A DNA stretch of 61,953 nucleotides, counting the filler. It is 9 parts of 9 records of this genome, joined end to end, with 100 filler letters (N's around TTAATTAATTAA, not from the genome) between each part and the next. Parts side by side here need not be neighbours in the genome. Positions count along the whole stretch, not along the records: positions 1 to 17,825 come from SRR11831585_380; positions 17,926 to 20,685 come from SRR11831585_390; positions 20,786 to 41,425 come from SRR11831585_396; positions 41,526 to 46,175 come from SRR11831585_397; positions 46,276 to 51,819 come from SRR11831585_398; 4 more parts are not named here. The stretch is one strand, 5' to 3'. Shown one piece after another: positions 3,101-51,702 of this stretch. Made by a program: the position numbers and the translations under genes. Numbering within the stretch: position 1 is the first letter of the stretch; each line of letters begins with the position of its first letter. The notes beneath the pieces were generated by a model. That model was not told the origin of the DNA. It saw only the letters and a program-made list of their open reading frames with translations, and did not search any database.

Positions 3101-6100
3101 GTCGACGCTGGGAACAGAGGTAGATGGGATGTGCCCAGTGTGTAGAGAATAGTGTCACCGGCGCTGCTGCTCTGTAGTGTGACGGTGGTACGGCCCACGT
3201 CGTAGGTGGTGGTGATAGTGGGTGCGGTAGCTCGCTACAATAACGTGAGTTAGGGAGAAATGATGCGGGGAGGCATAGCAGCATAGCACAGAGCAACGCA
3301 GCTTGTTCTGAAGGTGAGACAGGAAGGAGAGACTGCGCGACGTACCGGTTGTATAACGAATCGCATAATTTGAACAGAGCTGGGGACATGACCCGTTTCC
3401 ACAGCCCGCACATAGACTGTAACATCTGACAGGCCGAATGATGACAGCGGTATTGTGGGGCTTGTCACCGTTACGTAATCTGCACATTGTCCATGAATAT
3501 ACAAGCTGCGCACAACGCGCGTTGCCATTCATTCTGATCAACTACATGAATAACAACAACGCGTACCTGAATCCTGGACCACTGTGTTGTTGGGTTTGTA
3601 TGCAACCTGAATGCGTGAGTTCGCTGTCCCTGTTAGGTGCAGCGGTATGTGGGAGTCACGGCCCGCGAGATAAAAGGAACCGCTCACAGAAATGAATTGC
3701 TGTTGCTGTGATCCATCTACCACCACCAACGCAAAAGCGTGAGCGAATAAAATGCATCTGATCACCTGCAGCTACGAGCGATAGGTACGCTGGAAAACAT
3801 GTACTTCTGCTACAGACTACAGACGTACCACCTCGCGAAGCGAAGGCAGCTATGTTGATTACGACAGTGGACACCGCAGGCAGGGCAACATTGTACACGG
3901 CTGTCGTCTCCGGGCCCGCGAAGGAACCGGCCTTGAAGCAGCGCACTACACAGCAATACGATAAGAGCGTGATAATGCAAAAAAAAGATGTTCTGATATA
4001 CGCTCCGAGAAAACCGGATATTACCCTACGTCAACCACTGCCCGAGCCATAATTCAGCACAACATATGGGTTTGAGAAGGCACCGCTTTACACGAGTGTC
4101 AAGTTTGTAACAACGTATAGACACATACCTCTGAGGACGGTTGTAGTGAGCAGCACAATATTGCCACCCGCCACAGCAGTTGAGTATTGTGTGACGTTGC
4201 TGTTGTCTGTCGTGTAGCGCATGGTGATGTTCGGGTACAAATCAATGGGTGCAACGCGCACAGTCAACGGAGACGCATATCTGCGCAGATACGAAGTGAG
4301 TTATTACGAGGGATTCGTCATCAAAAGGTCATGTTTTGCTATTTACCCTTCCCCGCGCAGTTTTCACGACAATTACAGAATGAAGCAAGATGCACTGTAA
4401 ACAAGTCTATATAATATGTATGCACATACGATTGATTTCTCGGTGGGCTCATGGTGACGCCTGCAAGCGTAACTCGCACAGAGTAGTATCGCTGAGCCTC
4501 GGATGAGGGCGGTCTGTCTGCACCAGTAGCTATCGCACGAACTACACTCGTGAACATAGAGAGGGAAAATTAGGACAGCGACACGAAAAAAGTACAGGCA
4601 AACAGGGACACGCGCACTAGAAAACGATTCGATAAACTCCATACAAACGAATGACCTTGACTCGTACCAAGGAACGAGCTACTCGTGGCGTTTAATGTCA
4701 CTGGCGATGTGTAAACTGTGCCTTGCATTGGGTCAGAGCCATCAGTGGTGTATCTGAGACATCAAAGTAGTCGTAAGCTCCCTCGTTGCAACTTGGGCAA
4801 ACAATTTACCAAGCCACTCATAGCAACACATTCAGGACCAACCTCAAACACTCTCACGGGAGACAACCATACCGAATAACAACGGCACCACTGAGCAGGT
4901 CTGCGGAAGACACGCTCACGTTGAACGTGACAGAATCCGCATAAATACCGTCCACAGGATACACAACAGGTGTACCCACTCGCACGGGGGAGCTGTACAG
5001 AAGACAGCGACCATCCGGTGCGCGAGACAGTCTACTCACACCACGAAAGAATGAGCACACGATTCGTATAAAGAGAGAGAGAGAGAGTCAAACCATAACC
5101 TGTACAACACATTGCATACAAATTACACAGTACGTATCGTACCCGGGCAGGCATCCGCATGATGAATATCGTGTGCGCGGTGGTGTGCTGACTGTGCTGT
5201 TGGGAGGACATGAGGCGCATGCCACAGCGGACGCTGACTGCGTGTAGGACCGATCATCCATGATAGCCGCAGGGGCTTGTGCCGTGGGTTGTCCACTTGC
5301 CTAATGCACATATCATAGTTAGAATCAAGGGTACTCTATACAATGGATCAACTACCAGAACCCGGTACTCGTGGGTATTACGCTGATCAAAGCAGTATCG
5401 GATACGTAAACCAGAACCGGTATAGACCAATACCGGTGCGTATCCTTAGGTACGCACCTGTGTCAGGGAGTAATTTGACACGGCCAGCGCTCCAAGCTCC
5501 GTCACACTAAGAGATCCATTGGCAACGGGTACATTGCCTACATAGACACTGATGCGCGACACGCCCCGAGATGACAGAAACTGCGCGTTGTAGTTGAAGA
5601 TTGCAATGGATGAGATGTGTGTGGAGCGCCCTAGATCTAGTGTGACGCGAAAACGACCACTCTGTGCACTAGCAAACTGGAGTGCCGACTATCGGTCAAG
5701 GAGATAACACTACGAACACGCAATTCACTGACTTGCATTCACAGTCGGGACAAACAATAACCGAGTGACGATAACGAGCAATATGGGACACATGAATAGA
5801 AACGCGGAATGCTGAAAGGATATGATTAGGGTTGTTGCTGGTGGTGTCGCCATCAAACAATCGCTCACAGGAAGTTTGCGCGGTGCTGCTCCCATCCGAA
5901 GTACAGTTCACAATGGGCACCCTACAGCACACACAAACATTAACAGGCGCGAATCATCTATCGCAATAACACACATAAACTTGGACGGAGCGAATAGAGC
6001 GCCATCTGCGCGTAGGTAATGGTGTGCGTACAGTGACAGCAGGTTGTCATACACTTGCACCTCCAGAAGTCCTGTGGGCTGACTCGCACACGAGAAACAG

Positions 6101-9100
6101 TCGTTCGGGTGGACTAGCAGCGTGAGATAGCGCCCCTGCCACACCTACGTTCGCAAGACCACGTTCAGAGTTAGCGCGCCATCATCTAACACGACCAAAG
6201 TAGAAATTTCGTGTGACAGTAAAATATAGAGCTGGGTTGATATCATATCGCGTAAGAGCAAAAGAATAGAACCATTGACCGACTGTGACAGATGAGCAGG
6301 GTAAGTTGCGTACCTGAAACTGGTTCCAGCTACATTCACACGTGCAGTCATCGGTTCTCTTCATGCCTGCTGGGCAAGGGGCAACGAACAGGCCTCGGCC
6401 CGCACAAAACTCTGCACGAACGATATGATGAGAGCGATGCAACTCACTGGTTGTAACTATTCAAGTATCCATCTGAAACTCACTCATCTGAAACTAACTC
6501 ATTTCTGCGGTTCTTCGTACCTGTTGAGGACGTCGCTGCAATACACGTGCAATTTGTTGACGCTCGCTGAAATCCCGGTGCACATTGGGGTACGCAGGTT
6601 CCTAGATGCACCAAAATGACTTGTGAGTTAGTTTAACGGTCCTGTGGTTCCGGGAACTTGTGACGAAGCGGACAGGGAACCCAAAAGATCATACCGTTGC
6701 ACATCTCATCGAGTACGCCGTCGCACGCGTTCTGCACTGTATAACTTGTCTGATAGTAACCAAGCAAGCTGCTTGTAATGGCGGTGGGGTACATACGCAC
6801 TTCATCCACGGACGCGACCAGAAACGAGTTGTAATTGGTATCCTGCAGCAAATTATTCATAAAGGCCAGAGCACGCATGAAGCCATTGAAACATATATCG
6901 TGCACCGAGATTATCCCGCCATTGTATGGAGTGTACGGAAACGTACGTTTCGGCCACCCACGTAGACCAATTCTAGCGATCCCGCGTATGTGATAGTGCC
7001 CATATACACAGCTTGACCTGTGACACAGACACGTGCGCGGGGTGAGTCCGCAAGAAAAGAAACCACACACGCAAAGATTACAGTCAACCCAAGCCCATAT
7101 GTCCCAGAGATCACACACGCAAAAGCGTACCTGTCAGCTGACCATCCACCCAGAACTGCGTGACTCCGCTAGTCACCGTCACAGCAATGTGGTGCCACAG
7201 TGTGAGGTCCAGTGAAACGGGACTAGAGTACACGGTCCCTATGGAGCCTCGTGTGAATTGAACCGTGAGTGTGGTGTACGTGGTGACGATGCCCAGCGAC
7301 CAGAATGGATGCCTGTGCACAGAAATCAAGGTGAGTTCACACTGTATCACTGAACAAGCACTTCTCCGTTGTGTTAATATCAGGCACCTATGATGCACGT
7401 ACACGCCGATGATGGTAGCGTTTTGCGAAGTTGGACCTGCTCTGACCCATGCCTCCGCGGCAAAGTTCGACTGAGGCTGCAGCAGACGGCTGTCGGTTAC
7501 GTTGGCAGAAAAATACGATTGAAGAAGCTGTCTAGGGTTGCAGTTATTTGCGCCTCCCCCGGAAGTTGTGAAGCTCTGTAGATAGACATGTCAGTGAATA
7601 GCGCATTCAACAATCGTACCTGCAGTTGCGGGGGCAGCGGGATAGAAAAAGTACATGCAAAAAGATCGTTGTTATCTGCCGGTGAGTAAAACCCTATAGG
7701 GGCGTCCGGACACAAGTTACCCTATGCTTGCTGTTAGAAACACTTGACAAGAACGATGCATAAGGGATACACGAGGATGCGTGGACCAAAGAAGCTCACA
7801 TACCAATTTGTACTGATCCGCTTGTCTGCATAAAAATGGGCAATCTGGCGTTGTGACTGCAATCGTCGTGTACACAGATGTTGTGTCGTTTCCTGGCTTA
7901 TTGGTACTAAAACGCACGTTACTCAAAATGATCAACATGCACCAACCCTGCACACGCTGCACAAGAATGTATCACACTTTGGTGCATACCAAGTGAACAA
8001 GGAGGGATTCCCTGCTAGTGCATATTTGCCCACTGCTGCAGGCACACACACCGATCCGCCCAGCACATAGTATCCAGGAGTAGCACATGCCCAGGGACAG
8101 CTGTTGGAACCGTTCCCTGGCCCAATATACGTATCCAGAAGTTAAAGAGTTAACAGTCTTCAAATAAGTTTCGAATTTTTACGCACAAAACAAACGGTAT
8201 CAAAGATCAAAGAAAGAACAATGATAAGTGGATATATAGTGTGGAAGGGCGGAAACGCCAGCGGCGCGGTGGTACACGTATAACGAGCACAATCACCTGC
8301 GAGGGAGTAAAATCCCACCCCAACTGGGCTCACAACGCCATTGGCACAATAAAGATCGACACCACATGAGGACGCGGTGCAAGTCTGGAGCAGCGTTCGC
8401 GCAGCCCTGTGTGAGCTGACATCGGTGTTTAAGGCCAATGAGGTGGACCGAGTCTCGCCATACACAAGAACGGGCAAAGGCGGACTGGACTCGCTCAGCA
8501 GTCTGCGAGAGGCAGCAAATGTAAAGTTCGATCCTATTAAAATGATGTATCACCACAAGTAAGAACACGGCCTGTCACTTCCGCGTGTAGCATCGCCAGC
8601 GTACCTAAGGCTAGGACGAGGAAGCCGTCTGAAAGCTGAAATTTGGTTGGTGTTCTCAGATTGTCATAGGAGCCATTTCGAAAAACTCCTGTCGAAAGTG
8701 CAACCACCAATGGCAATCCAAAGGTGTCATTCGCTTGCGCTGCACAATAAAATAAGCAACCATGGGAAGTTGTACTCGATGAAGTCATTAACCAACCCAC
8801 AGTGGACCAGTACAACACACCTACCTGTGAACGAAGCCATCGTGTGCGTGTTCATGAGCAGCTCCAGCCCAGGCGTTTTTGCAAACAGCGTACGACACAT
8901 GTGAAACCCAGTCAGCCTCCCCGCCACCGTGCGATTGCTCTCAAACCGCTGCTCCGCCCACGCAAACTGCGCCAGTTTCACGTTCCAGCAGTTCCGTAAC
9001 AGATCGAAGGGTAGGGCGCTGACAGCACTCTGATACGCACTGTGCAGCGTGCGTGCTCTTGCGAGTCCGCTCAGTATGGTGTGATATACAGCGTTCTGTA

Positions 9101-11151
9101 TGTTGAAGCTGTATGAGGTTGTGAGTGTGGGGGAGACGCAGCGGCTCTCAATGGTTCCTGTCAAAGGTTTCATACCGCTATGTGTGAGCACATTGTGCAG
9201 CAAATACGCGAACACGTTCGAATAAGACCTGGGTATACTTGCTCTTCAGAGCAGATGAACAGAAATACAGTCTGACAGACTTGACTAGTACACGGATAAC
9301 ACGCACACAAGCATACCTGGAATGGCGCACTTGAGCGTGTAATAGATCATGGTCTGCCGCCACAGGTCTACGTACAGTCCGTGCAGCGCAAGCACGCTGG
9401 TGGACAGAGACAGAAAATGTGCCGCATCCTCATACTCTCTAACGCACACGGTGTTTTTAGTACGTCACGTGGAACTATGCACACATGATAATGATGGTGC
9501 TAACAAGTAGAAGCAATGCTTTGAGGTTGTTGTGCACACTCAATATACGGGAGAGTACGCGACGGACGACATACCGCTGAATTGCTTCGAAACTTGTGTT
9601 GGTGACCGAATGAAACGGAAACAGACCCGTCAACACAGTGGAGCCTTGGAACCACGATATCGAGTCAGCCTATGTTGCGACACATAGTCAGTGTGGTGTG
9701 GGGGCTTTGCTGTGCACTCAATACATTCTCACACAAATCACAGAAAGCATGACCGGCTGTTGGTGTAGTGTGTCACATTGCAGAACATACCTCAAGTAAC
9801 GGTAGCTGCAGGCTGATCAAAGCGATCTCTGTCTCGTTCAGAAGTACATCTGCACATACACAACGAACGCTCCGCATGAGACCACCACATATTCGCAGAG
9901 GTCACAGTTTCACTAGGCGCCTTATCCCACTGACAGTACATGTGACGCACCGATGTTGCTGCTGCGCTGTGCAAGGAGAGCGAGTGCGTCCCGTGTGCGG
10001 TTCAGTCGCTGTATGCGGTCTGACAGTATACTCTGTGCGGTGGAGGGCGATACGGAGACGACGGGGGCGAGTCGAGACTGCGAGGACAGAATACACAGGT
10101 TAGAGAGAGAGATAGAGACAAACACTGAGCCTAGACGCGGGAAACTACCACAAGAGGTACGGAACACGAACAACGAGCTTGATTTGCGAAAGCACAATAG
10201 TCACAGTCAAAATCTGAGACGACATACGGGTAGACCCAGGGTCGACTCACGCAGCCACTCCTCACTGCGCTGCACGGCTTGCACCACATTACGATACAGC
10301 AGCCACATCCGCTCCAGTATTCTTCTTGCTGCATCCGCTAGAACAGGCGCACGCACACTGCCTACCTGAACTGAGGCCCCAAACGCACCGCTAAGAGCCC
10401 CACGGTCCGCTGTCAAGGTTTCGCCGCTCCAGTCCCGTATGTTGTCGCGAAGCTGATCATAAAGGGTCTGCAGATTCCGTATGCTGCGCCATGCGTGAAG
10501 ATCCGTGAGCGCATGGCTGGCCCGCTGTGCGTCGGCGCTGAGAAGGGCGGGGGCCGGTCTTTGCAGGAAGCTGAATGAGGTTCCGCTCAGATCGTGCCAG
10601 GATGACGCGGTGGGGTTGCAGTTGTAGGTGAAGGCTTGGCACGGAAACGGGTCGAAGATGGAGCTGTTGAAGGACGCAGGGGCGGAAACTGCGCGCGAAG
10701 AAACCGCATGAGTTGCTCATGTAACAAATTTTGTGACGTACCATAGCATTGTGAGTTCCATGAATATAATGGACTTGTGTTTCCATTGGTATTCTCCCCA
10801 CTGATGACTGTTGCTGCGCTCTCGATGAACTGAATGGATGGGCGGTTCATGAGAAACGGAGCAGTCTGACACAAGATGGAGCCATTGATGACACGCAGTC
10901 TTCCCATGAGCAAGGGCCCGGGTATTACTTGAAAGGCGGTCGCCACATGACCTGCACACAAGTTACGAATTACTTGGGTACCACCTCGTGCGGAACATAC
11001 CAGCAAGCTCCAAATGCTGTAACGATGTATTGGCCAGAGCGCACGTCCCTATATGGTGTGTCAGAAAAGCGCGCAACTTGATTCTTTCAAGATGCGTACA
11101 CAAAAAAGCGCAATGCGCTAGTACAAGATATATTATACACCCAAAACGCAT
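151..11151 (-). CDS. Giant multi-exon (about 43 exons) type-I membrane protein: signal peptide, unannotated N-terminal region, Cys-rich repeats, LamG/ConA-like, F5/8-like, CHB_HEX_C/Fn3-associated-like repeats, TM, CxxC..CxxC, B-box, low-complexity tail; 3' end probably runs off the window
   Basis: Manual splicing gives one phase-consistent frame from ATG 11151 (MRFGCIIYLVLAHCAFLWTCALA, signal-peptide-like). It passes FAAEAWVR..WHHIAVTV..FWVDG..VDEVRMY (LamG, ~6700-7450), LFDGD..LDLG..IAIFNYN..RGVSRI (F5/8-like, ~5460-5920), IRYTTDGSDP and MRYTTDNS (~2930-4990), TM WLAVGLPVLILTVLGFILVVCVM-RYRFKR (exon 2576-2770) and CDRC..VYCSEC..CTQC..LH..H (1660-1940). The model needs two AT-AC introns. Confidence 0.75.
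5682..5823 (-). other. U12-type (minor spliceosome) AT-AC intron, 142 nt, phase 1
   Basis: 5' end ATATCCTTT, branch point TCCTTGAC (5702-5695), AC 3' end 14 nt after the branch A. Removal joins NNPN to LQFASAQSGRFRVTLDLG in frame. Confidence 0.9.
8131..8235 (-). other. U12-type AT-AC intron, 105 nt, phase 2
   Basis: 5' end ATATCCACTT, branch-like TCTTTAAC, AC 3' end. The segment holds in-frame TGA and TAA with no AG between the TAA and the resumed coding frame. Removal restores CTTAPLAFPPFHTMYIGPGNGSNSCPWAC, which matches the neighbouring Cys repeat. Confidence 0.82.
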
Positions 11152-11445
11152 TCTCGAACCACCACTAACTGAGCACCATAGCCAAGAGACGAGAAGTCGG
11201 TCGCCAGAGAGACAGAACACTGCCGAAAAACCCGCGAACGGCCGACGCACTGAAGAACCAGGGGGCAGTTGGGCACACGCCGCTGTGCAACGCAGCTGGA
11301 AAGTGATGTAGGGAAAACACAGCAAAAATGTGCGTGCCGCATTCATATATCGATAGAGGAAAACGACCCATGTGTATGTGAAAGCGAGTATTCAAGACTA
11401 GAGGTTGTTGGTTTTTAAATACTGAAAAACTTGGGGTGCCCGCGA

Positions 11446-13686
11446 ATGGCAAATCTAGATATTACCAGCCCGCAATCTGCAGCTGTAATACCTGATCCAC
11501 CACAAGTACAATTGCCCGAATTTCGATCGTTTGGGAGATGTCGAAGTTTAGACGAATTTGATCGTCTCAACGTTATCGGAGAGGGAACTTACGGAGTTGT
11601 TTGTATGCTACTTGTTACGGAGTAATGCTGTAGATGATATTTACGATGTTTCGCACAGATCGCGCACAAGATAAGGCCACGAAGCAGGTGGTCGCGCTAA
11701 AGAAAGTGCGCATGGAGCGTGAAAAAGAAGGAGTACCGCTGACCGCGTTGAGGGAAATTAAATTATTGCGGTCATTGGATCACGAAAACATCGTCAGGTT
11801 ATTGGACATCGCGGTTGGGACCGATCCCCAAAACAGGTTCGTCTTCTTGCTCCTAACGCATTATTGCGCTGGTTATGATCTTTCCGTGCATTTGAGGTTC
11901 CCGTCTGTCCCATTTTGTTTGTGTTGTGATTGCGTGCCTCACAGATGCGTTCGTGTGTGCAGTTTGTATTTAGTGTTTGAGTATTGCGAGCACGACCTGG
12001 CGTCGTTGCTGGAGAACATGAAGAGTCCCTTTACTGAGTCTCAGGTCAAGTGCTTGCTGCGTCAGTTGCTCAAAGCGGTCCTGTTCTTGCACGATAGCTG
12101 GATTATTCACAGGTATGCAAGCGTATTTTTGGGCGTACGTGTGACGCATGAGTGCATGTTGCTTGTGCACAACTCTGTCAACGTGTTGATCGGCGTCATT
12201 CGTTTCCTTGTGTGCTGCATTCTTTCCCCTACTCTTACATGTGTGCGTTTCTCTGTCCGTCTCTGTCTGTTCTTCTCTAGGGATCTCAAAATGTCCAATC
12301 TGCTGTTCACCAACCGGGGTGTGTTGAAACTCTGTGATTTCGGACTCGCACGATCGTTTGGTCAGAAGATCCGACCGTATACGCCGCGTGTTGTAACGCT
12401 ATGGTACCGGGCGCCTGAGCTGTTGCTAGGCGATGCCAAGTACACACCGGCTATCGATATGTGGTATGTGTGTCCCTAAGATATCTCTTCGCATTTGTGT
12501 TTGTGCGTGTCCCTGTGTGTATATGTATGTGTGCGATGTGTATGTTATGCATGTGTGTATTGGCTGTAGCCCCCCCCCCCCTCCTCCTTACTATCTCTCA
12601 TTTCTCACGCCCTAACACCCTCACAGGTCCATGGGCTGTATCTTTGGTGAGCTGCTTCAACACAAGCCGCTCCTCCCCGGCCGCACCGATGCACAGCAAC
12701 TCGAGTACATATGCCGGCTGCTGGGGACCCCCAATGAGAAGGTCTGGCCGGGATTCTCACGGCTGCCGAACGTGGAGAAGTTTGCTCTGCCCCATGTTTC
12801 GTACGCGCTGTCTGTGTGTCTGTGTGTTGTGTTGTGGTTGTTGTTGTCGTCGTTGTTGTTGTTTGGCAGACGGGCGGCTGTGTGTTATAGTGATATGCTG
12901 TGGTGCGCTGGGGATTTGTATTTTTATGTCTATTGATATGCTTGTATTGTTGGGTATGTGTGTGTCGAATTGTGCGTTATTTACTTATGTGTTTGCTGCG
13001 TAGGAGCTCCATGCTACGGTCCAAGTTCCCCAAATTGTCTGACAAAGGAGTGGATTTGATGCTGCAGTTCATGCGATACGATCCGGAACGCAGAATATCT
13101 GCTGCGGACGGTATGTTGCTGTGTTGTGTCTCTGTGCATTATGTGTGTGTTTCATGTTGATCTCGCTGCATGTGCTGCGATCCGCTATAATTGTCGCCTT
13201 AGAGTATTATTAGGGGTGTGTGTATATTGTGTATAAGTGTGTATGTGTGTGTGTGTGCACTCATGTCTCGGGTCCACACACACAGCTCTGCGGCATCCCT
13301 ATTTTGACGAGTCCCCGCTGCCCTGCGCCCCTGAGTTTATGCCCACCTTCCCCTCTCTGCACGACCACAACTCAACCAAGTACGCTTTCTTTGTTGTTGT
13401 TGTTCTTGTTGTTTTTGTTTTTGTTCTTGTTGTTGTTGTTGTTGTTAGTGTCAATGCGCGCTGTTGTTGCCTTTTTGTGCGTGGGGACATGCGCTCCAAT
13501 GTGTTGGTTTGTATCGCTGTGTGTATTCCTCCGTGTGTGTTGGCCCGGGTACAAAAGATTCCAACTTAGCATAACGCTTACTCCGTGTGTATGATGTGCG
13601 TTTGCAGCCGAAGGAAAAGGAAATCACAATCGCCTCTGGACCGGCCGCATGTTCGCAGTGGTGATGAAATCCGGTCAGAACTTTGA
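11446..13686 (+). CDS. CDK10: Cyclin-dependent kinase 10 (8 exons: 11446-11602, 11659-11836, 11963-12112, 12281-12463, 12627-12800, 13004-13110, 13286-13379, 13608-13686)
   Basis: [90 protein letters not shown] and PLPCAPEFMPTFP match CDK10-type motifs. All introns are GT-AG. Confidence 0.9.
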
Positions 13687-14502
13687 CTCTTTCCGATGTT
13701 GTGTGGTTTTTTGTCACGGCCGCCTCCCGGTGTCGTCTATCTCTTTCATCTCTCATGCCTGCGGACTGTTTGATCAGTGACTGTCGTATTTATGCACTGA
13801 AGCACCGATGCAGTTGTTGTGATCATTCTTTGGTGTATCGAAAGCACAAGAATGTAGGTGTGTTGACGCTCTGTGAACCCTGAGACGGAACGTGTTGCGC
13901 GCGAGATCATGTGTTTCTGTATTTCGATGACTCTCTCTTCTCTCTGAACTTGTTACTGGAAGGTTGTGAGAAACACCGAACGAGTGTATAGTTGTGTGTC
14001 TGTGCGTGCGGTGGGTTTGGTCACTGAGGCGCAGCAGGCGATGTAAACTCAGGGATTCTAAAGTGTGTGTGAACGAATGACAACCCTCACCGGTATCTTC
14101 TCACACCGCACACATACCTTTGCAACGAAGGGGCCAGTAATGCAACATATTCATTCTATTATATTAACATATATTATAAATAACAGCCCGCGAGTCTAAT
14201 AAGCCGCAGACGGCTCGTCTCATGTTACAAATGCATCATCATTTCACGATTAACATATACCGATTACATCGCAGCCAGGAACAACAAACAACCCTCGGTC
14301 GATACGAAACACAGAACGTCTCCTAATGTCGCTCCGCTACGTATGTGCGGCAACCACGATCTCTCACGCGCCTGGGGGTGCATCTACATGCATGTTGATA
14401 TACGAATTGAAATGTGACGAGTGCCGTGTGATGTGTTTCACTTGTTCCGTTCCAGCCAGGTCGGACAAAGCGGCGGTCCGGCATTTAGCAGTATTGTCGA
14501 TT

Positions 14503-17500: not shown

Positions 17501-17793
17501 GGGCCAGTTCTGTGCCACGCATGGCTTCATCGCGAAGTCACATCCTACATACACACATGTAAGAAACTACGCGCACTCTACACAAATGTATACGTATGTG
17601 GAGTGTCATTTCAAACACACACATTTACATACACACACACGTACACACACATACCAAACACCACACACGCGCCTACCTAGGTTACGACCCCATATGAGGG
17701 TATCAGCCCGCGTGAAGTTGACCTGATAGTACCCCGAGTCCTGTAACAGCGCCAGTGTGAGGGCACTGCGCACAGGACGCAGGTCCGCAATAC
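14503..17793 (-). CDS. Leishmanolysin/invadolysin-like M8 metallopeptidase, C-terminal part, with two IPT/TIG-like domains and a GPI-signal-like C-terminus (5' truncated at contig end)
   Basis: SALTLALLQDSGYYQVNFTRADTLIWGRNLGCDF, LPAYFQYFSNPRYGGPYSLMDYC and GEHYGTASHCMMSTL are M8-like. SVTPAVGTHLGGTLVTLLGSGF and TVTPSAAGTTSGSLITLSGGNF are IPT-like. Ends ASSGGHSMGAVFLLLLILGVTSVSAL* (TGA 14505-14503). HExxH lies upstream and is not visible. Confidence 0.8.
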
Positions 17794-17825
17794 CTAACAC
17801 ACAGATACACACACAGACACAGACA

Positions 17826-17925
17826 NNNNNNNNNNNNNNNNNNNNNNNNNNNNNNNNNNNNNNNNNNNNTTAATTAATTAANNNNNNNNNNNNNNNNNNN
17901 NNNNNNNNNNNNNNNNNNNNNNNNN
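17826..17925. other. Artificial contig-joining spacer (44 N + TTAATTAATTAA + 44 N)
   Basis: Identical 100-nt spacer occurs 8 times; the 12-mer gives stops in all six frames. Confidence 0.98.
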
Positions 17926-17962
17926 CTGTTTTCTGCTTGTGCTCCTTTACCTACGCTTATAG

Positions 17963-20455: not shown

Positions 20456-20685
20456 GGTGGTTCTTTCAGTGTTGAATGATGACGATGATGACGATGATGA
20501 CGACGTTGCTATTGTGTTTGGAAATAGACCGTGCAAGAACACCGGTGAACCTGAATCGTGCGTTCACACACTCACAGCATGAACGGAGAGGGAGCGAGAA
20601 AGGAAACGAACCGTACGAGCGTTGCTGCTGAATCATTTGTAGTAGTGGTTTCTCATACACATCTGTGAATCTCCGACCCTCCCGC

Positions 20686-39713: not shown

Positions 39714-39819
39714 ACTGTTTCTCAAATATGGAACGATGAACGAGAAGGGAGATAACTTTTATAGTAACACACGGAGGAGAGGAGGCTGTCTCTCATCCGT
39801 GTGCTTAAGCGAGGCAATT

Positions 39820-41425: not shown

Positions 41426-41525
41426 NNNNNNNNNNNNNNNNNNNNNNNNNNNNNNNNNNNNNNNNNNNNTTAATTAATTAANNNNNNNNNNNNNNNNNNN
41501 NNNNNNNNNNNNNNNNNNNNNNNNN
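41426..41525. other. Artificial spacer between two non-adjacent E. coli contigs
   Basis: N44-TTAATTAATTAA-N44. Confidence 0.98.
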
Positions 41526-41789
41526 AAAAACCAATATATTATCCTTAATTATCTATATATTTTCCTATTTTTCAGCGCAAACATTCATGTAATGAATAAT
41601 TATCACCACAAACCACCTCACCAGCACCTTATTATTCACATGATCGTAACTATAAAATTCATTAAATAAATACATCCCAGCAAGTTGGCTATTTCTGAAC
41701 GAGTTATTTATTTACATTCACAAACAGATATATATACTGCTTCAGCTTTTTATTTTAAAAAATAAATTTGTTATTAAGGATATGTTCAT

Positions 41790-42554
41790 ATGTTTTTCAA
41801 AAAGAACCTCACAACAGCTGCTATTTGTGCAGCACTTTCTGTTGCAGCATTCAGTGCCATGGCAACAGATTCAACTGATACAGAATTAACTATCATCGGC
41901 GAGTATACCCCTGGTGCATGTACCCCAGTTGTTACGGGCGGCGGCATTGTTGACTATGGGAAACATCATAACAGTGCGCTGAATCCGACCGGTAAAAGTA
42001 ATAAACTGGTTCAACTGGGCCGCAAAAACAGCACATTAAATATAACCTGCACAGCACCAACGCTAATTGCTGTAACCTCCAAGGATAACCGTCAGTCGAC
42101 CATTGTAGCGTTAAACGACACATCCTATATTGAAAAAGCTTATGATACTCTCGTAGATATGAAGGGAACGAAAAACGCCTTTGGTTTAGGTTCTGCGCCT
42201 AATGGACAAAAAATTGGCGCTGCATCCATTGGTATTGACAGGTCTAATGGTGGGATTCACGCGGCGGACGATACAGGTGAAATTCCTGTCGACCTGATTC
42301 AAACTGACCACTGGTCAGCAGCGACCCCCACATGGAAAGCCTCATCTAATGGCGCATTCTGCTCGCTGACAAGTTGCTCAGCAATCGAGCGCGGTTATTC
42401 TGTTGCAAAAACAGGGGAACTGACACCTGTTGCTATTACAGCGGTCACCTTCCCGTTACTGATTGATGCTGCGGTAAATGACAATACTATTCTTGGTTCT
42501 GATGAAACGATCAAACTGGATGGTAACGTCACTATCAGCGTTCAGTATTTATAA
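41790..42554 (+). CDS. gltF: DUF1120 periplasmic/fimbrial-like protein GltF
   Basis: 254 aa, MFFKKNLTTAAICAALS..GACTP..ISVQYL. Confidence 0.92.
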   Translation: MFFKKNLTTAAICAALSVAAFSAMATDSTDTELTIIGEYTPGACTPVVTGGGIVDYGKHHNSALNPTGKSNKLVQLGRKNSTLNITCTAPTLIAVTSKDNRQSTIVALNDTSYIEKAYDTLVDMKGTKNAFGLGSAPNGQKIGAASIGIDRSNGGIHAADDTGEIPVDLIQTDHWSAATPTWKASSNGAFCSLTSCSAIERGYSVAKTGELTPVAITAVTFPLLIDAAVNDNTILGSDETIKLDGNVTISVQYL

Positions 42555-42726
42555 GAACTTGTAATACAGTTTTTATTTTTACGTCATTAACCAGTTAGCT
42601 ATAACTCGGACAGATTATGCCCTATGACATGGTCTGTCTTAATCAATCTCATCGCAAACAGTGCATAACATATATTAACAATATGTTTCTGCGTTATTTA
42701 TCATTATTACAGGAGTTTTAATTTAA

Positions 42727-43401
42727 ATGCTCAGACACATTACATTCACTGTATTTATAACAACATCAATGAATACCTTAGCCACAGGGATGGTTCCTGA
42801 AACATCAGTATTGCTGGTTGATGAAAAGCGTGGTGAAGCTAGTATTAATATTAAGAATACAGATGATCATCCTTCATTGCTTTACACCACCATTGTTGAT
42901 TTGCCTGAAAGCAATAAATCAATTCGTTTAATCCCGACTCAGCCCGTTATTCGTGTTGAAGCCGGTCAAGTACAACAGGTTCGATTTTTACTTCAGGCGA
43001 CTGTTCCTCTGCAATCAGAAGAGCTGAAACGCGTAACGTTCGAAGGTATTCCACCAAAAGATGACAAGAGCAGCAGAGTTACTGTTTCAATTCGTCAGGA
43101 TCTACCTGTACTGATCCACCCGGCTTCCCTGCCGGAAGAGCGAGAGACCTGGAAATTCCTGGAATGGCGTAAAAATGGCGACCAAATTGAGATTAGCAAC
43201 CCCAGTAATTATGTCGTTCGTATGACCTTACAATTTAAAACGCTCCCTTCAGGAAAAACGGGGGCTATAAATAAGACCTATTTTCTACCACACACCAGTA
43301 CAACTACTGCATTAACAAACGCTACGGATACAAAAGTCGAGTTTTACCCAGCCAGCCGATATGGTTATCGCGGTAATAAATATGTCACTGACTTAAAATA
43401 A
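42727..43401 (+). CDS. yhcA: Fimbrial chaperone
   Basis: 224 aa, PapD-like (RVTFEGIPPK). Confidence 0.9.
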   Translation: MLRHITFTVFITTSMNTLATGMVPETSVLLVDEKRGEASINIKNTDDHPSLLYTTIVDLPESNKSIRLIPTQPVIRVEAGQVQQVRFLLQATVPLQSEELKRVTFEGIPPKDDKSSRVTVSIRQDLPVLIHPASLPEERETWKFLEWRKNGDQIEISNPSNYVVRMTLQFKTLPSGKTGAINKTYFLPHTSTTTALTNATDTKVEFYPASRYGYRGNKYVTDLK

Positions 43402-43421
43402 CTTTGCCTGGAGCGACAAGG

Positions 43422-45803
43422 ATGTTAAAAAAAACGTTACTGGCCTACACCATTGGTTTTGCCTTTTCTCCCCCAGCCAATGCAGATGGTATAGAGATTG
43501 CCGCTGTTGATTTTGATCGGGAAACATTAAAATCACTAGGTGTAGATCCTAATATATCGCATTATTTTTCCCGTTCAGCCCGTTTTTTGCCAGGTGAATA
43601 TTCACTGATAGTATCAGTAAATGGCGAAAAAAAAGGCAACATTGCTACGCGCTTTGATGAAAATGGCGACATTTGTCTTGATCAGGCATTTCTGCAACAA
43701 GCCGGTTTAAAAATTCCTTCTGAAGAAAAAAATGGCTGTTACGACTATATATTGTCCTACCCGGGTACCACAATCACACCATTACCTAACCAGGAAGCGT
43801 TAGATATTATCGTTTCACCACAGGCGATCATTCCCATAGGGTTGGATCTCACAAACGCAGCAACTGGTGGAACAGCTGCGCTGCTAAACTACTCTCTGAT
43901 GAGCAGCCGTGCAGAATTTTCTAATGGGAGTTCGGACTACTCCCAGGCTGCACTTGAAGGCGGGATTAATATTAATGACTGGATGTTACGCAGCCATCAG
44001 TTCCTTACACAAACAAATGGCACATTCAGTAACCAGAACTCGTCAACCTACCTTCAACGTACCTTTACAGATCTTAAAACACTCATGCGAGCAGGTGAAG
44101 TTAACCTCAATAATAGCGTGTTGGAAGGAGCCAGTATTTACGGTATCGAAATCGCACCGGACAACGCATTGCAAACCAGCGGCAGTGGTGTGCAAGTTAC
44201 TGGTATAGCCAACACCTCTCAGGCTCGTGTCGAGATTCGTCAACAAGGAGTTTTAATTCATTCCATTCTGGTTCCTGCGGGCGCATTCACTATCCCTGAT
44301 GTACCTGTTCGCAATGGTAATAGTGATCTTAATGTCACCGTTGTCGAAACAGACGGTAGTTCGCACAACTATATTGTTCCCTCCACCCTGTTTAATCAGC
44401 ATGTAGAAAGCTTCCAGGGTTATCGCTTCGCGATAGGGCGGGTAGACGATGACTATGACGAATCACCTTGGGTAATTAGTGCATCGAGCGGATGGAATCT
44501 GACACGCTGGAGTGCAATGAACGGCGGCGTTATCGTAGCAGAAAATTATCAGGCGGCATCAATCCGGTCGAGTCTGGTTCCCCTGCCCGATTTAACAGTG
44601 AGCAGCCAAATTAGTACATCGCAGGATACGAAAGACTCACTGCAAGGACAGAAATATCGTCTTGACGCGAACTACAATCTCCCATTTTCACTTGGGCTAA
44701 CAACCAGCCTCACTCGATCTGATCGCCATTATCGCGAACTGTCTGAAGCGATTGATGATGATTATACCGATCCGACTAAAAGCACTTATGCGCTTGGTTT
44801 AAACTGGTCTAACTCCATTCTGGGTGGTTTCAACATCAGTGGCTATAAAACATATAGTTACGACGGTGACAATGACTCAAGCAACCTTAATATTAACTGG
44901 AACAAAGCGTTCAAACACGCCACGGTTTCCGTCAACTGGCAGCATCAACTTAGTGCTTCAGAAAATAATGAAGACGATGGTGATCTGTTCTACGTCAACA
45001 TCAGTATTCCATTTGGCAGATCAAACACCGCCACACTGTATACTCGCCATGACGATCATAAAACCCACTATGGTACTGGTGTCATGGGAGTCGTCTCAGA
45101 TGAGATGTCCTACTATGTGAATGCTGAACGAGATCACGACGAACGTGAAACGAGCTTGAACGGCAGTATCAGTTCCAATCTCCATTACACCCAAGTCAGC
45201 CTTGCCGCAGGAGCAAGCGGCAGTGATAGCCGTACTTACAACGGTACGATGTCAGGTGGTATTGCCGTACATGATCAGGGAGTGACCTTTTCACCGTGGA
45301 CTATCAATGACACTTTCGCCATCGCAAAAATGGATAACAATATTGCAGGTGTCAGAATTACATCTCAGGCAGGCCCAGTATGGACAGATTTTCGGGGTAA
45401 TGCCGTCATTCCATCAATCCAGCCGTGGCGAACATCAGGAGTTGAGATCGATACCGCCAGCTTGCCAAAAAATGTCGATATCGGTAACGGCACAAAAATG
45501 ATCAAACAAGGCCGTGGTGCAGTAGGGAAAGTCGGATTCAGTGCGATAACACAACGCCGTGCATTACTCAATATCACACTTTCCGACGGCAAAAAACTGC
45601 CCAGAGGCGTTGCGATTGAAGATAGTGAAGGCAACTATCTGACAACATCAGTGGATGACGGTGTTGTATTCCTCAATAACATCAAACCGGACATGGTGCT
45701 AGATATAAAAGATGAGCAGCAATCATGCCGTATTCACCTTACATTCCCAGAAGATGCACCAAAAGATGTGTTCTATGAGACAGCAACAGGAGAGTGCCAA
45801 TGA
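43422..45803 (+). CDS. yhcD: Outer-membrane fimbrial usher
   Basis: 793 aa from MLKKTLLAY; FLPGEY and PAGAFTI usher motifs. Confidence 0.92.
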   Translation: MLKKTLLAYTIGFAFSPPANADGIEIAAVDFDRETLKSLGVDPNISHYFSRSARFLPGEYSLIVSVNGEKKGNIATRFDENGDICLDQAFLQQAGLKIPSEEKNGCYDYILSYPGTTITPLPNQEALDIIVSPQAIIPIGLDLTNAATGGTAALLNYSLMSSRAEFSNGSSDYSQAALEGGININDWMLRSHQFLTQTNGTFSNQNSSTYLQRTFTDLKTLMRAGEVNLNNSVLEGASIYGIEIAPDNALQTSGSGVQVTGIANTSQARVEIRQQGVLIHSILVPAGAFTIPDVPVRNGNSDLNVTVVETDGSSHNYIVPSTLFNQHVESFQGYRFAIGRVDDDYDESPWVISASSGWNLTRWSAMNGGVIVAENYQAASIRSSLVPLPDLTVSSQISTSQDTKDSLQGQKYRLDANYNLPFSLGLTTSLTRSDRHYRELSEAIDDDYTDPTKSTYALGLNWSNSILGGFNISGYKTYSYDGDNDSSNLNINWNKAFKHATVSVNWQHQLSASENNEDDGDLFYVNISIPFGRSNTATLYTRHDDHKTHYGTGVMGVVSDEMSYYVNAERDHDERETSLNGSISSNLHYTQVSLAAGASGSDSRTYNGTMSGGIAVHDQGVTFSPWTINDTFAIAKMDNNIAGVRITSQAGPVWTDFRGNAVIPSIQPWRTSGVEIDTASLPKNVDIGNGTKMIKQGRGAVGKVGFSAITQRRALLNITLSDGKKLPRGVAIEDSEGNYLTTSVDDGVVFLNNIKPDMVLDIKDEQQSCRIHLTFPEDAPKDVFYETATGECQ

Positions 45804-46170
45804 AACGGATAATAACAGGATGCCTGCTGCTGAACTTCGCCATGGCCGCTCAGGCAGAGTGTAATATCTCCAGTAGCATACAAAATATCGACTATGGCAA
45901 ACGAAGTGCTGCCATGCGCCAAGTTGACCGGGGTAAAACAACACAATTAGCAGACAGAACAATCACGCTGGTAATGCAATGCGATCAGGACGCTCATATT
46001 CGTGTTCAGTTGAATACCGCTAATATTTCCAACAACGGATTTGGATTTGGCCCGAATGGTTCATTAAATCTGATCGCCAGCGATGCATTTTCAGGTAGTA
46101 ACAATCTCGACCTGGCGTTAGCCAGTGGCAAAAATGACAATCCGGGCAGCACAGGAACAGCATCAATTAG
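45800..46170 (+). pseudogene. yhcE: yhcE N-terminal fragment, interrupted by IS5
   Basis: MKRIITGCLLLNFAMAAQAEC..; ends at TTAG followed by GGAAG and the contig break. Confidence 0.8.
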
Positions 46171-46175
46171 GGAAG
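46167..46175 (+). mobile_element. IS5 junction: YTAR target (TTAG) plus first 5 nt of IS5 end (GGAAG)
   Basis: Only 5 nt of the element are visible; the call relies on the known yhcE::IS5 insertion in K-12 and on the contig ending here. Confidence 0.65.
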
Positions 46176-46275
46176 NNNNNNNNNNNNNNNNNNNNNNNNN
46201 NNNNNNNNNNNNNNNNNNNTTAATTAATTAANNNNNNNNNNNNNNNNNNNNNNNNNNNNNNNNNNNNNNNNNNNN
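46176..46275. other. Artificial spacer; E. coli-to-eukaryote boundary
   Basis: N44-TTAATTAATTAA-N44. Confidence 0.98.
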
Positions 46276-46315
46276 TCGTAGCGCGCGAACGTGAGCGGTC
46301 TGACGTGTGCGGTAG

Positions 46316-49300
46316 ATTGAGGAAGCGGGACTGAAGAAGAACGACCCCAAGTTCGTGTCCACCGCAATTCTGCAGTATCTGCAACAACGCAAAGGGTTTG
46401 TCGTGGAGAAGAAGTACAAGACCCTGCTGCGCTGGGCGCGTTTCTGTACGTTTGGGCCGCTGTGGTGTCCGTGTTGGTGTACATTTCTTCGGGGATGCAT
46501 CTCGTCCGTGTGGTCCGTCCGTGGGCCCTTTGTGCGATTAGTTTGAATGTGTGATGCGTCCCGCTATCCCATCGTATATGTCAGTCTGTGCATTGTCTTA
46601 CTGAGGGGCCGCGGTGTAGGCACGCGTACCGATATCATGGAGCGCGTGAGGCCTGTGATGCGAGAGCGCTTGGAGACTCTCGATGCGGAGTTTGCAGATA
46701 TTGCAGAGCGGATTCAACGGATACAACGATGGGTATGCTCGTAATATATGTGTGCCTGTTATGTCTGCGTGTGTATACCAAGTGTATATTTGTGTATTCA
46801 TGTGTGCTTGTGTGTGTCCGTATGCGTGTGTGTTTCTTATGGTGGTGTTGCACACAGCGGGATGATGTGGAACAGAGGACTCTCGCGGCCGCACGCAAAG
46901 GGGAAACTCTGGAGGAGCAGCCACCATCGGAGGGTACGCATGCTTGCTGCTGTTGTTGTGAGTGTGCGGTGTCCTGGACTTTAATTCGTGTTCCCGAAGG
47001 CGTGTGTGTGCTGATAGAGCTGCGTATTGGCCGTAACGGACTATGCACTCTGGCCCATACTTATGACTATATACATTTCCCGCGGGCATTCTCCGTGTGC
47101 ATATATCCATGTGTATCTATCTCTATGTTTCTGTGCTGCGCTGTTGCCTGTTCTGTATTCGTCCCCTGATATATCTGAGTGTGTAGTCCCCGGTCTTGAT
47201 CCCACCGATGTGCGCTATTATCTGAGGCCCCTCATGCATTCGTTTGAGGCCGGCAGCCGTCTACGGTTCTTCTTCAAGAAGCTGCAGGTATTCCGCTGTC
47301 TGTGTACCTTACAGTCTGTGTCCCTTGCAACGTCGGTGGTCTCCCGTGCTTCGATCTTGCGAGTCTTTCTGTGCCGGTGCAGTGCATGTTGTCTCAGCTC
47401 TCTGTTCCCCCCTTTGCGCATCCACCACAGTGGTTTCGAGTTTGCTCAGTAACCTGTCTGCGCTCTCTTTCTGTGTGGGTGTGCCTGTGTGCGTGTGTGC
47501 GTGTGTGCGTTTGTGTGACCTTGTTTTGCAGTGGCTGCCGTACACCAACCGGTTTGATTTGTACCGACGGAGCCTCGAGCTGATGAAGCAGACCATGCAC
47601 GATGACACCAACTCCAAACTATCGTACGTCACGCGGTTCACGGAGGAGTGCGCGTGTGTGCATTACGCGGTTGCGCGCGTGCTTGTGTTTGTGTGTCTGC
47701 ACCCAGCGTATCATATCGTACAGAGAGGATAGAAAGCACATCAAGATTGCTTTTTTGAGCGTCCCTTACGTCCGCGGTAGTCAGTTATTGTCTTCTCTGT
47801 ATACGAGTCCGTTTCTCGGTGTGGCTCTGTCCCTCTCACACGGATTGTGTTGTGTGCAGGTTGCCTGTGCTGCAGCCCGAGAGTAGCCCCCTCTTTCGTG
47901 CGGTTGTGACGTCGCTCTGTGAGATATTCCGCGTATCCCGCCCCGTCACTGCCAAACACATGCTTCGGTGCGTTTCTTGTGCCGCGTTCTGTTCGGGCTT
48001 GTGTGCTGCTGCGCTTGTGTATCCAATGTTGCAGTTCGTGGTCTGATTACACATTTGTTTTGTCGGACGAACAGATCGGAGGTGGCCGACGCGGTTGCCC
48101 AGCATGTCTCTGCGGTGTCTGCCGCTATTGCAAGTGAAAAGCGTCTGGGCACGAATGCATCCGGCGTCGCGTCCACAGCGGCACACTACGCGGCACACTC
48201 GGTTGCACTGCCCCTGCCGGACAAGGGCGACGACGACGACGGCCTCACGCTGTTCGCGGCGGTCAGCAAGTATGCTGTTGTTGTTGTTGTTGCTGGTGGT
48301 GGTGGTATTGTTGTTGTCATTGTCGTTGTCATTGTTGCTGTTGTTGTTGTGTTGTTGTTTCATTGTTTGTGTTTCTTGTGGTTGTTGTTACTGTGTGTAT
48401 GTATATGTATGTGTGCATGTGTGTTTAACTAGGGACGCATGTCCTCGTGCGCCTTAGCTTGTGCTGTCCCATGTGTACTGACCCGCATTTCCGGATATAG
48501 AATATTCGGGTTCACGTTCGATAACCAAGCGGCACAGAAGCTTCTGCCCGGGTACGACTGCTCTATTGTGTTTGCCCCCTCCACAGAGACCAGCCGGCGT
48601 GAGTCCAAGACCGTGGAGGTCACGCCCGAGACCACGCACGTCAAGCCCGCGACATGGCTTCCATATGTGGGGTACGGTGCTTTCTCCGCTTGAATGTCTT
48701 TGCTGTATGAATGCGTGTTTGCGTGTGTCTTTGTGTAGTCCTTTGCTTGTGATGCAGTTTTCAGTCACTATTATGTGTTTGCTCACGTGGTGGGTGTGTC
48801 GTGTGTGCAGTGATGTCGAGGTCCCTGATTGGCAGGCGGAGCAGCAGCGCAAACTGCGCACTGTGGCGGTCAGCGATAACGAACTGCGCATCGAGATGGA
48901 CTTTGTCGACAACGACGATGCCAGTATGTGTGTGTGCCAGTCTGAAACCGTCTTGGTGTGAGTTTGCGGTATCGTAGTAGTATTGTTTTCTCTGACCGCC
49001 AACCTCTCACTGCGATGACACGTACCGCATCGCCTCTGTTTTGCTAACATGATGCCTGCCTGTCATTTGCGTGCAGTCTTTGTGACCAAGCGTTTGCGCG
49101 AGCAGGCTATGCTGCATGAAGAAATTGTCAGCGATGTCGAATGTACGTTGCCATGTTTCTGGGGGTTCGGGTGGGGGGTGGGGGGTGGGGTGGGGGTGGG
49201 CAGATTGTGCTTCTTTTTGCTTTTATGTACGAACATGTGGTCAGTCGAGTGTTGTACCCCTACTGCTGTTCTCTCAAATCGTCTGTTGTCTGTCTCCTTG

Positions 49301-51702
49301 CAGATAACCAGCCCTCTACGGCGGTGGAGCGACGTGCCAGCGAGAAGCAGAAACGCGGGAAGGCCGGTGCTCTCAGCGCCAAGGTACCGTTGTAATTTTC
49401 ATCTTCATCCTTTCGGGTTAGTTCGTTGCGTTCTGTCAAGCTCGTGCATGCACGTTGTCCACACTATATATACCTTCTGTCACTCACAGCCTCCGTGCTC
49501 TGTGTGCGCTGCTCCTTGTTGCAGGTTGACTCGAAAACGGTCGCGAAGGAACGTGCGGAGAAGCCCTTCTCCCGCCGTGTTCTCGCTGCTTATTATATGC
49601 GCCACATGCGTCTGCGGGACCTTAAGCACAAGCTGTTGTGTATTCTGAACTATCAGCGCTCGGTGCAGCGTCGTCTCGCCATCGATGTATGCGGGCTGGG
49701 TCGTTGTCTGTCTCTGAGTGGTCTGTGTTGCATTGATCGTGCTGTGTCTCTGCATTGTGTTCGTGTTGCGGGAAATTATCTCGAATACTTTCAGTCGCTG
49801 TTGCTATCTGCGCGGATTTCTCGTGCTCTCCCCTTCAAGATATGACTGTTTTCGGTGGTAACTCTGTTGTACGGTTAGGGCATTGGATATGCGTTGCCGG
49901 GCGAGGACCGCGAGCAAGTGCTGGCTGCGCAGTCACAACGTCCTATTCAGAGGTATTTTTGTGACTCGTTGGGGACTGTGTTGTGTTGTATGGGCGTTGC
50001 TATGCTGGAATCTGTTGCTTCCCTTTAATGTATTGTGCATATCACTGAACCATATTGTTTTCCATAGCGTGCCGTCCGAACATATTGCACTAGCGGATCC
50101 TTCCCTATACAAAGCCAGCGCGGACGTGCTGATGGGTTATAGCGGTATCAAGACGCGCGACGATTCCTATGAGTTTTCTGACAGCGGGATTCGTGTGAAG
50201 GACTCATTTGGGGTCTACGTTGTGTATGATATCCTTTGAATGATTATGTGTTCGCGTATATATACATATGTGTGTGCGTCCGTGTGTCTATGTGGGTGTT
50301 CTGTTTCTTGCCGCCCTATCGTGCTGGCCGCTGCTGTGTGTGGACTTGTGCATCGCTTTTAGCTACGTTTTCTTTGTGTTCCTTCACTTTCTTGCACAAG
50401 CGGCGCTTTCCGACCTTCACGCAATCGAAGATGAGGTGGTTCGTATGGGAACGCTCTTTGTGGACCGGCATGAGAGCTCGGATGCAGCCACAGGGTCCCC
50501 CGACCGCGTCACCATTCTGTTGGACGCGTTGGAGAGCGAGGTGCTGTTTAACGAGGCCAAACGAAAGGTGTGTGTTTTCGTGTTTTTGTGTGTTTGTGTG
50601 CGTGTGTATATCTGCGGTCGCGCGTGTTCCTCGGTGATGTGCGCCGATATTCTGTGCAAGTGGATCGAATGCACGCCTATTTGTGCCTCTCTTCGCTCAT
50701 GCACGACACTGCGTTTGCTGTTTGTGTAGGTCATCGACTGCTACATGGAGGCTTATGACCACACGTGCGATGCCAGTATGCTCTCGCGCTTGAGGGCTGA
50801 GATCAACAAGCTCATCGTGCTGCGACCGCGTATTGACCTGGAGGTATGTGTTTCGTCTGTGTTGTTTGTTCGCATTTGGGAATCGTTTTGTGTGTTGTGT
50901 ACCGTCATGTCGATCCCTGTGTGTCAATATATGTATACAAATGTGTCTGCGCGTAAGTTTGTGTTCACACCTAGGTGTGTGTGTGTGTGCAGGGTCCGTA
51001 CTTTATGCCGTCGTACGCCTCGGAGATCGTCTCTATGGGACTGCACTACAACTTGGTGCGCGACGTCGCAACACAGTGCATTGAGGAGGAAATGAAGCTG
51101 TCTGAGCACGTACACGCACAGATCGCCGTGGCACCGCTGCCCCCGCCTGCGTTCGGCTTCAACGAGCCCCCATGTACGTCGTGTTTCAGCCTTCCGTGCA
51201 TGTGTGTTTATGTGTGAACATGTGTGTTTATATATGTGTGTCCTCCTTGTTCTCACACTTCCTTTCTGCAGCCCCGGTGCATCTCGTGATTATGACCAAC
51301 GGCGGCCCCTCTGTGGGCGTGCTGGACTTTGCCCCGTCCCTCGGCCTCATGTGTGAGATCCCGCGCTTTCTGTGCGAGGCCACCGATGAACTGCGTCGTC
51401 TGCATGGTGTGCAAAGTGGCCTGGCCGCAACGTTGCTGCAGCGCGCCGTGTTCCAGCAGGCGCTCGTCGAATGGCGTGTGGCCCGAGAAGAGTCAAAAAT
51501 GTCCTCTCGCCTGCAGCTGCAGTTCTCGCCGGGGGGCAGTGCGCTCATGCAGTGGCTCACCGCGCCGCTCGTCTCCAATATGGTGGCGCTGGACGGTGTT
51601 GTCAGTGAGTTCTCTCCTCTTGAGAGGGCCGCGGTGGCCGACAGTCTGCGCGGTGTGGTGCCTGCGGGCGGTGCTCCGGCCCCTGCGAAGGGCGCACCAT
51701 CG
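46316..51702 (+). CDS. CCDC162/DUF4549-like large helical protein, internal fragment (about 18 exons)
   Basis: KYKTLLRWARFC, YYMRHMRLRDLKHKLLCILNYQRSVQRRLAID, IRVKDSFGVYVVYEAALSDL, DRVTILLD..E..F..AKRKVIDCYMEAYDH and RPRIDL resemble CCDC162-family blocks as I recall them. Phase-consistent splicing including one AT-AC intron. Confidence 0.65.
50229..50397 (+). other. U12-type AT-AC intron, 169 nt, phase 1
   Basis: 5' ATATCCTTTG, branch-like TTCCTTCAC (50379-50387), AC at 50396-50397. Splicing gives VVY-E-AALSDL; read-through hits TGA two codons after the donor codon. Confidence 0.88.

Follow-up and report, generated by a model that had tools for sequence, protein, structure and literature searches.

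The window analysed here, 61,953 bases of DNA composed of nine contigs placed end to end, contains three sites that are very probably genuine U12-type (minor) AT-AC introns, located in two protein-coding genes of one eukaryote. Seven of the contigs, about 35.8 kb in all, are eukaryotic and show short exons and GT-AG introns; adjacency and distances across the joins are meaningless. Introns 1 and 2 lie 2.4 kb apart in a gene for a fast-evolving surface protein, and intron 3 lies in a gene whose matches point to a conserved ciliary CCDC162-like protein. All three were found by direct reading at the positions given in the original prediction (Table 1), which had also placed AT-AC introns in a surface protein and had described them as phase 1 or 2. 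Each has an ATATCC donor and a TCCTTRAC-like branch site 11-14 nucleotides (nt) before the terminal AC, and the excision of each joins open frames, in phases 1, 2, and 1, with none in phase 0.

The three intact signal sets strongly suggest a working minor spliceosome in the host organism, in agreement with the original prediction. What the host appears to retain is minor splicing with introns of a well-known kind. According to the established steps of the minor spliceosome, U11 would recognise the ATATCCTT donor, U12 would pair with the TCCTTRAC branch site, and U4atac/U6atac-U5 would join next; the AC lying 11-14 nt beyond the branch A would then serve as the 3' splice site.

Signals and coding context of the three introns

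The signals were compared with the donor consensus [A/G]TATCCTT and the branch-site consensus TTCCTT[G/A]AC, as quoted in the part of a Physarum study cited here (bioRxiv 10.1101/2020.10.12.336362). The U12 5' splice site, the branch site, the AT-AC ends, and restoration of the frame were found in all three introns, with a 6/8 donor in intron 2, and all three border regions of coding potential on the coding strand. The 5' ends of introns 1 and 3 read ATATCCTTTC and ATATCCTTTG, respectively. On both strands of the eukaryotic contigs, ATATCCTT occurs at two sites in total, both of which have the branch-site and AC arrangement, with the branch-site match 121-151 nt after the donor. Order-3 Markov simulations (300 runs) gave a mean of 0.017 such strict arrangements, and two or more were obtained in 0/300. 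When the donor was loosened to ATATCC and the branch pattern likewise, the arrangement was present at 3 of 12 sites. Motif statistics alone settle introns 1 and 3, and not intron 2.

The host gene of intron 3 was assigned as CCDC162-like by a DUF4549 match and by collinear tblastn matches of two EukProt proteins. A HMMER search with the 143-residue exon 19 of this gene returned four proteins at E ≤ 0.001; two of them were EukProt transcriptome proteins of 2,220 and 2,349 residues, namely P0124 from Fabomonas tropica (ancyromonad) and P0123 from Artemidia motanka (diplonemid). In tblastn against contig E, both proteins were collinear over 9-10 exons. Their coordinates are contiguous over intron 3 (627/628 in P0124 and 705/706 in P0123), exactly across 50231-50399. 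The AT-AC model gives a gap-free alignment with the homologues through the junction (115 and 92 bits), and the split codon yields E facing a conserved D.

Further searches concerned the same exon. P0121, a 76-residue open reading frame (ORF) from a 36,861-nt JGI metagenome contig, shares 51% identity with exon 19 and is nearer to it than any named organism; this contig could contain the orthologous intron position. The locus L001, a contig match to P0121, was considered as a CCDC162 orthologue and dropped, tblastn having shown otherwise. Exon 19 had no match in a word-based homologue search or a metagenome scan, and P0121 likewise had none in the metagenome scan. The best score of exon 19 in the ESM Atlas was 0.77, which gave no lead. 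A 30-base exon string had 0 matches against genome contigs, and a literature search for CCDC162 with U12 returned an unrelated paper only.

The surface-protein gene hosting introns 1 and 2 includes Cys-rich repeats, Laminin_G_3, a discoidin-like part, Fn3_assoc/CHB_HEX_C repeats, and a membrane span. Weak Pfam matches to DUF4457 (E 5e-4) and F5_F8_type_C_2 (E 0.07) were obtained with the exon downstream of intron 1, and a PDB sequence search with this discoidin-like exon gave 0 matches. At intron 2, the G-[FYK]-Y-x-L-x-G/Cys motif of the upstream exon recurs in the downstream exon. Translation through the intron meets two in-frame stops, and a TAA 21 nt before the AC closes the downstream frame, with no AG between. 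Ranked among the 110 predicted U2 (GT-AG) introns of the same organism, the only GT-AG routes around intron 2 have donors no higher than the 1st percentile and an acceptor at the 10th, and no acceptable GT-AG route connects the two coding exons. The gene model selects intron 2 once the branch pattern permits TCTTTAAC.

Introns 1 and 2 have in common a branch-site context, TGTTAnCTCyTTrAC, about 14/17 identical (5695-5711 and 8141-8157, minus strand) and absent from intron 3. A common mobile-element ("introner") origin of the three introns was rejected: save for this context, alignment found no similarity beyond the splice signals. The same gene also contains a 102-nt Cys-rich exon at 7620-7721 (minus strand) followed by a 44-nt GT-AG intron at 7576-7619, both missed by the gene model; introns shorter than 70 nt therefore exist, and the intron count is slightly low.

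Table 1. Positions of the predicted introns, their signals and flanking exons, the host genes, and the parts of the window.
Feature	Positions	Strand	Basis or remark
Intron 1, U12-type AT-AC, 142 nt, phase 1	5682-5823	-	Direct reading, open frames joined
Intron 1 donor ATATCCTT, 8/8 to U12 consensus, then T	5816-5823	-	Consensus match
Intron 1 branch site TCCTTGAC	5695-5702	-	Branch A 14 nt from terminal AC
Exon downstream of intron 1, part of a discoidin/galactose-binding-like domain	5458-5681	-	Gene model, weak Pfam matches
Exon upstream of intron 1	5824-5885	-	5' limit uncertain; an alternative acceptor gives a possible start at about 5921
Intron 2, probable U12-type AT-AC, 105 nt, phase 2	8131-8235	-	Direct reading, coding context
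Intron 2 donor ATATCCAC, 6/8 to consensus	8228-8235	-	Consensus match
Intron 2 branch site TCTTTAAC, one change from TCCTTAAC	8141-8148	-	Branch A 11 nt from AC
Cys-rich exon downstream of intron 2	7991-8130	-	3' limit hand-set at a GTATGC donor; model end 8052
Exon upstream of intron 2, Cys-rich repeats	8236-8533	-	Gene model, weak Adt-1 match
Surface-protein gene, host of introns 1 and 2	2576-8739	-	Limits approximate; gene model chains 52-11371 as one gene
Intron 3, U12-type AT-AC, 169 nt, phase 1	50229-50397	+	Direct reading, gene model, homologue alignment
Intron 3 donor ATATCCTT, 8/8 to consensus, then T	50229-50236	+	Consensus match
Intron 3 branch site TCCTTCAC	50380-50387	+	Branch A 11 nt from AC
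Exon upstream of intron 3	50068-50228	+	tblastn: P0124 residues 580-627, P0123 residues 668-705
Exon downstream of intron 3	50398-50567	+	tblastn: P0124 from residue 628, P0123 from residue 706
Partial CCDC162-like (ciliary) gene, host of intron 3	46278-51819	+	21 predicted exons; cut by both contig ends
Leishmanolysin-like gene (Peptidase_M8, E 7e-8) fused to IPT/TIG repeats and a C-terminal membrane span	14503-17823	-	14 predicted exons
Contig A	1-17825		
Contig B	17926-20685		
Contig C	20786-41425		
Contig D	41526-46175		
Contig E	46276-51819		
Contig F	51920-54574		
Contig G	54675-56919		
Contig H	57020-59360		
Contig I	59461-61953		
Linkers	17826-17925, 20686-20785, 41426-41525, 46176-46275, 51820-51919, 54575-54674, 56920-57019, 59361-59460		

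Gene model and alternative splice routes

Exons and introns were predicted with a self-trained dynamic-programming parser, which combined splice-site matrices with codon log-odds and a Markov model of introns; its seed consisted of eight hand-checked conserved exons and four introns of the kinase gene, and the parser was then retrained on its own output. A first run was too permissive, over-split the sequence (245 exons), and was discarded. The final model comprised 11 gene chains and 113 introns (110 GT-AG and 3 AT-AC), of which 94 were flanked by exons of at least 45 nt on both sides; on contig A, separate genes have probably been joined into one chain. When minimum intron length and intron penalty were varied in four settings, the intron count ranged from 104 to 126, and the same three AT-AC introns were always kept. 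Their share is accordingly 2.4-2.9%. The intron count agrees with the roughly 100 introns that had been placed by hand in the original prediction. Nearly all U2 introns have GT[A/G][C/T]G donors, with G at position +5 in 87%; their median length is 144 nt and their phases are split 45/37/28. The absence of GT-AG introns with a U12 donor was likewise borne out, since 0/110 predicted GT-AG introns carry GTATCC; the coding-strand GTATCC sites coincide with the start of an exon (15408) or lie within a U2 intron (48019).

The predicted intron density is extreme, about 7.3 per kb of coding sequence, with a median exon of about 110-140 nt. On the coding strand, the introns are TG-rich and A-poor (A 17%, T 36%), and this leads to long spurious Cys/Val-rich open frames.

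Several observations weigh against the identification of the three introns as U12-type. The gene model is self-trained, and comparison with homologues covered only contig E, and thus only intron 3 among the three. The donor of intron 2 departs from the consensus at +7 and +8, and the simulations with loose motifs reached three or more arrangements in 4.7% of 300 runs (mean 0.71). Run without the U12 class, the parser replaces introns 1 and 3 by in-frame GT-AG routes, and these score about equal to the AT-AC introns once the U12 bonus (8+5) is discounted; because this bonus is arbitrary, the difference in parser score decides nothing alone. The window contains no Rfam match to U11, U12, U4atac, or U6atac at gathering or E ≤ 1, a result that is uninformative for 36 kb, and no minor-spliceosome protein genes. 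Rfam searches gave 0 matches at gathering and, at E ≤ 1, just chance microRNA- or small RNA-like matches in TG repeats.

Introns 1 and 3 might instead be ordinary U2-type GT-AG introns at nearby sites, their U12-like motifs being coincidental. Both alternatives keep the frame (GTTTCT at 5803 to AG at 5662, junction 5804/5661, for intron 1; GTATGA at 50224 to AG at 50362, junction 50223/50363, for intron 3), and they are chosen without the U12 class at a cost of about 10 to 20 units, U12 bonus included. For intron 3, the alternative sites are weak yet within the U2 range, the donor being at the 14th and the acceptor at the 12th percentile of the 110 U2 introns. The alternative donor of intron 1, however, is below the 1st percentile of the same set. 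The GT-AG route at intron 3 forces a 10-residue insertion relative to the homologues and lowers the alignment score against both proteins (106 and 84 bits), and the 12 extra codons have a coding log-odds of 0.07, that is, no coding signal. Coincidence would also have to account for a strict donor and branch-site arrangement that never arose twice in the simulations. We consider this explanation of introns 1 and 3 highly improbable.

The GTATGA near intron 3 is a usable U2-type donor 5 nt upstream of the AT-AC donor, and its AG lies 35 nt upstream of the AC. These sites are a possible cryptic or alternative U2 route adding 10 residues.

A different doubt concerns intron 2, which would be no intron if the surface-protein gene were broken (a pseudogene or an assembly error) or if the Cys-rich ORF at 7991-8130 were non-coding. 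The 6/8 match of ATATCCAC, the lack of homologue support, and the occurrence of the loose arrangement at about 4% of random ATATCC sites (0.71 per 16.6 in the simulations) speak for this explanation, and in view of the loose-motif simulations intron 2 rests on coding context, not on the motif alone. That context runs the other way: the ORF shares the Cys-rich motif of the upstream exon and runs on into further coding exons, and the length and position of the intron restore the frame exactly. The branch site, moreover, is one change off the consensus and 11 nt from the AC. Overall, a non-intronic origin of this segment appears unlikely, and its assignment as a probable U12-type intron was retained.

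Make-up of the window and nature of the host

The nine contigs are separated by eight identical linkers, each composed of 44 N, TTAATTAATTAA, and 44 N. Contig C (20,640 bases) has 100% identity to laboratory Escherichia coli K-12 strains (DH5alpha, DH1, HMS174, and others), and the eukaryote assembly is therefore mixed with laboratory E. coli DNA. Contig D, by reading of the sequence only, appears to carry enterobacterial fimbrial chaperone and usher genes. About 25 kb of unrelated bacterial DNA falls inside the span 5682-50397 to which the original prediction referred.

The eukaryotic contigs encode a CDK10/11-like kinase, ALDH, allantoinase, a GT41 glycosyltransferase, and a WD40 protein, in addition to the leishmanolysin and IPT/TIG membrane protein, the large surface protein, and the CCDC162-like ciliary protein. 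Their donor classes and intron lengths are alike, which is consistent with a single source organism for all seven contigs. This host is probably a very intron-rich, ciliated eukaryote. Matches to the allantoinase ORF were confined to about 40-65% identity, in bacteria and animals, and gave no taxonomic placement, and a word-based homologue search with the GT41 exon was without matches. For Alveolata, Discoba, and Ochrophyta, evidence of minor introns is lacking according to the part of a pan-eukaryotic survey cited here (PMC10639083), so that membership of the host in any of these groups would itself be news. The eukaryotic contigs end at (CA)n/(GA)n microsatellites, for example, at 17806-17825, 51920-51939, 54675-54694, and 59461-59480.

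Density of minor introns and comparison with known systems

The local count, 3 in 104-126 introns and all of them AT-AC, is well above published genome-wide densities and provides a lead, not proof, of the AT-AC-biased expansion that the original prediction had considered possible. According to the same part of the survey, the density of minor introns is 0.276% in human; Basidiobolus, at 0.554%, is among the densest outside Amoebozoa, and AT-AC introns represent about 26% of human minor introns (PMC10639083). For 3/113, the exact 95% interval is 0.55-7.6%. The probability of at least three minor introns among 113 is 0.004 at the human density, 0.025 at that of Basidiobolus, and 0.10 at 1%; the probability that three of three are AT-AC is 0.018 at the human share.

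Two readings of this count were weighed. The introns may form a chance cluster of real U12 introns in a genome with an ordinary density (≤ about 0.5%) and an ordinary AT-AC share, and this is the account towards which we lean. The sample is small, about 36 kb with 104-126 introns; two of the three introns share a host gene and cannot count as independent events; and these very introns were the reason for flagging the window. The prior for an expansion is also low, because in the survey of more than 3,000 genomes, in the part cited, a density far above about 0.55% is reported for Physarum alone (PMC10639083). A literature search for protist minor-intron expansions since 2021 gave nothing beyond known surveys. 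The per-species supplementary tables of PMC10639083 may list further species above 0.55%. The low probabilities calculated above at the human and Basidiobolus densities and at the human AT-AC share count against a chance cluster, as does the seat of introns 1 and 2. Ancient minor introns are usually not found in fast-evolving surface-protein genes.

The other reading is a second, independent large minor-intron expansion, to at least about 1-3% of introns. Unlike that of Physarum, it would be made up of classical AT-AC introns that have canonical branch sites, and it would have reached lineage-specific surface-protein genes that evolve fast. We regard such an expansion as possible and, on present evidence, rather doubtful. 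By rough weighing, there is about one chance in four that the genome-wide minor-intron share exceeds 1%, and about one in two that it exceeds 0.5%.

The three introns resemble the classical U12 AT-AC introns of animals, plants, and others in the ATATCCTT donor, the TCCTTRAC branch site near the 3' end, the YAC 3' end, the non-zero phase, and a host gene with many U2 introns besides. They differ in their local share of 2.4-2.9%, compared with the human and Basidiobolus values quoted above, in the location of two of the three in a surface-protein gene that evolves fast, and in being AT-AC throughout, compared with about 26% in human. Should the local share apply to the whole genome, the host would resemble Physarum polycephalum in having minor introns far above about 0.5% and outside ancient conserved genes. 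In the part of the work on Physarum by Larue, Elias, and Roy cited here, GT-AG donors dominate (3,021 GTATCCTT versus 627 ATATCCTT), a TTTGA branch motif is positioned 10-12 nt upstream, the classical CCTTRAC is rare, and many termini are non-canonical (bioRxiv 10.1101/2020.10.12.336362). In contrast, 3 AT-AC and 0 GT-AG minor introns were found here, all with classical branch sites, and neither the TTTGA motif nor the non-canonical termini characterise them.

In Blastocystis sp. ST1, the survey, in the part cited, gives AT-AC introns as 77% (196/253) of minor introns, with a mean length of about 42 nt and 49% in phase 0 (PMC10639083). AT-AC is thus the main subtype there as in the present window; however, the introns described here are 105-169 nt long and none is in phase 0, so the Blastocystis combination of an AT-AC majority, introns of about 42 nt, and a phase-0 excess is absent. 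Unlike Blastocystis, the host here is probably ciliated and very intron-rich, with introns of about 144 nt. As far as these sources describe them, the signals of the three introns differ from both known unusual cases, Physarum and Blastocystis.

The interest of the finding lies in the local density, the AT-AC-only make-up, and the fact that a fast-evolving gene holds two of the introns. In the parts of the two sources cited, minor introns are normally ≤ about 0.5% of introns and mostly ancient, and Physarum is the only documented large gain (PMC10639083; bioRxiv 10.1101/2020.10.12.336362). If the expansion is true, a second lineage with percent-level, AT-AC-dominated minor introns that have kept classical signals would provide an independent case for studying the gain of minor introns and the reasons for the persistence of the minor spliceosome.

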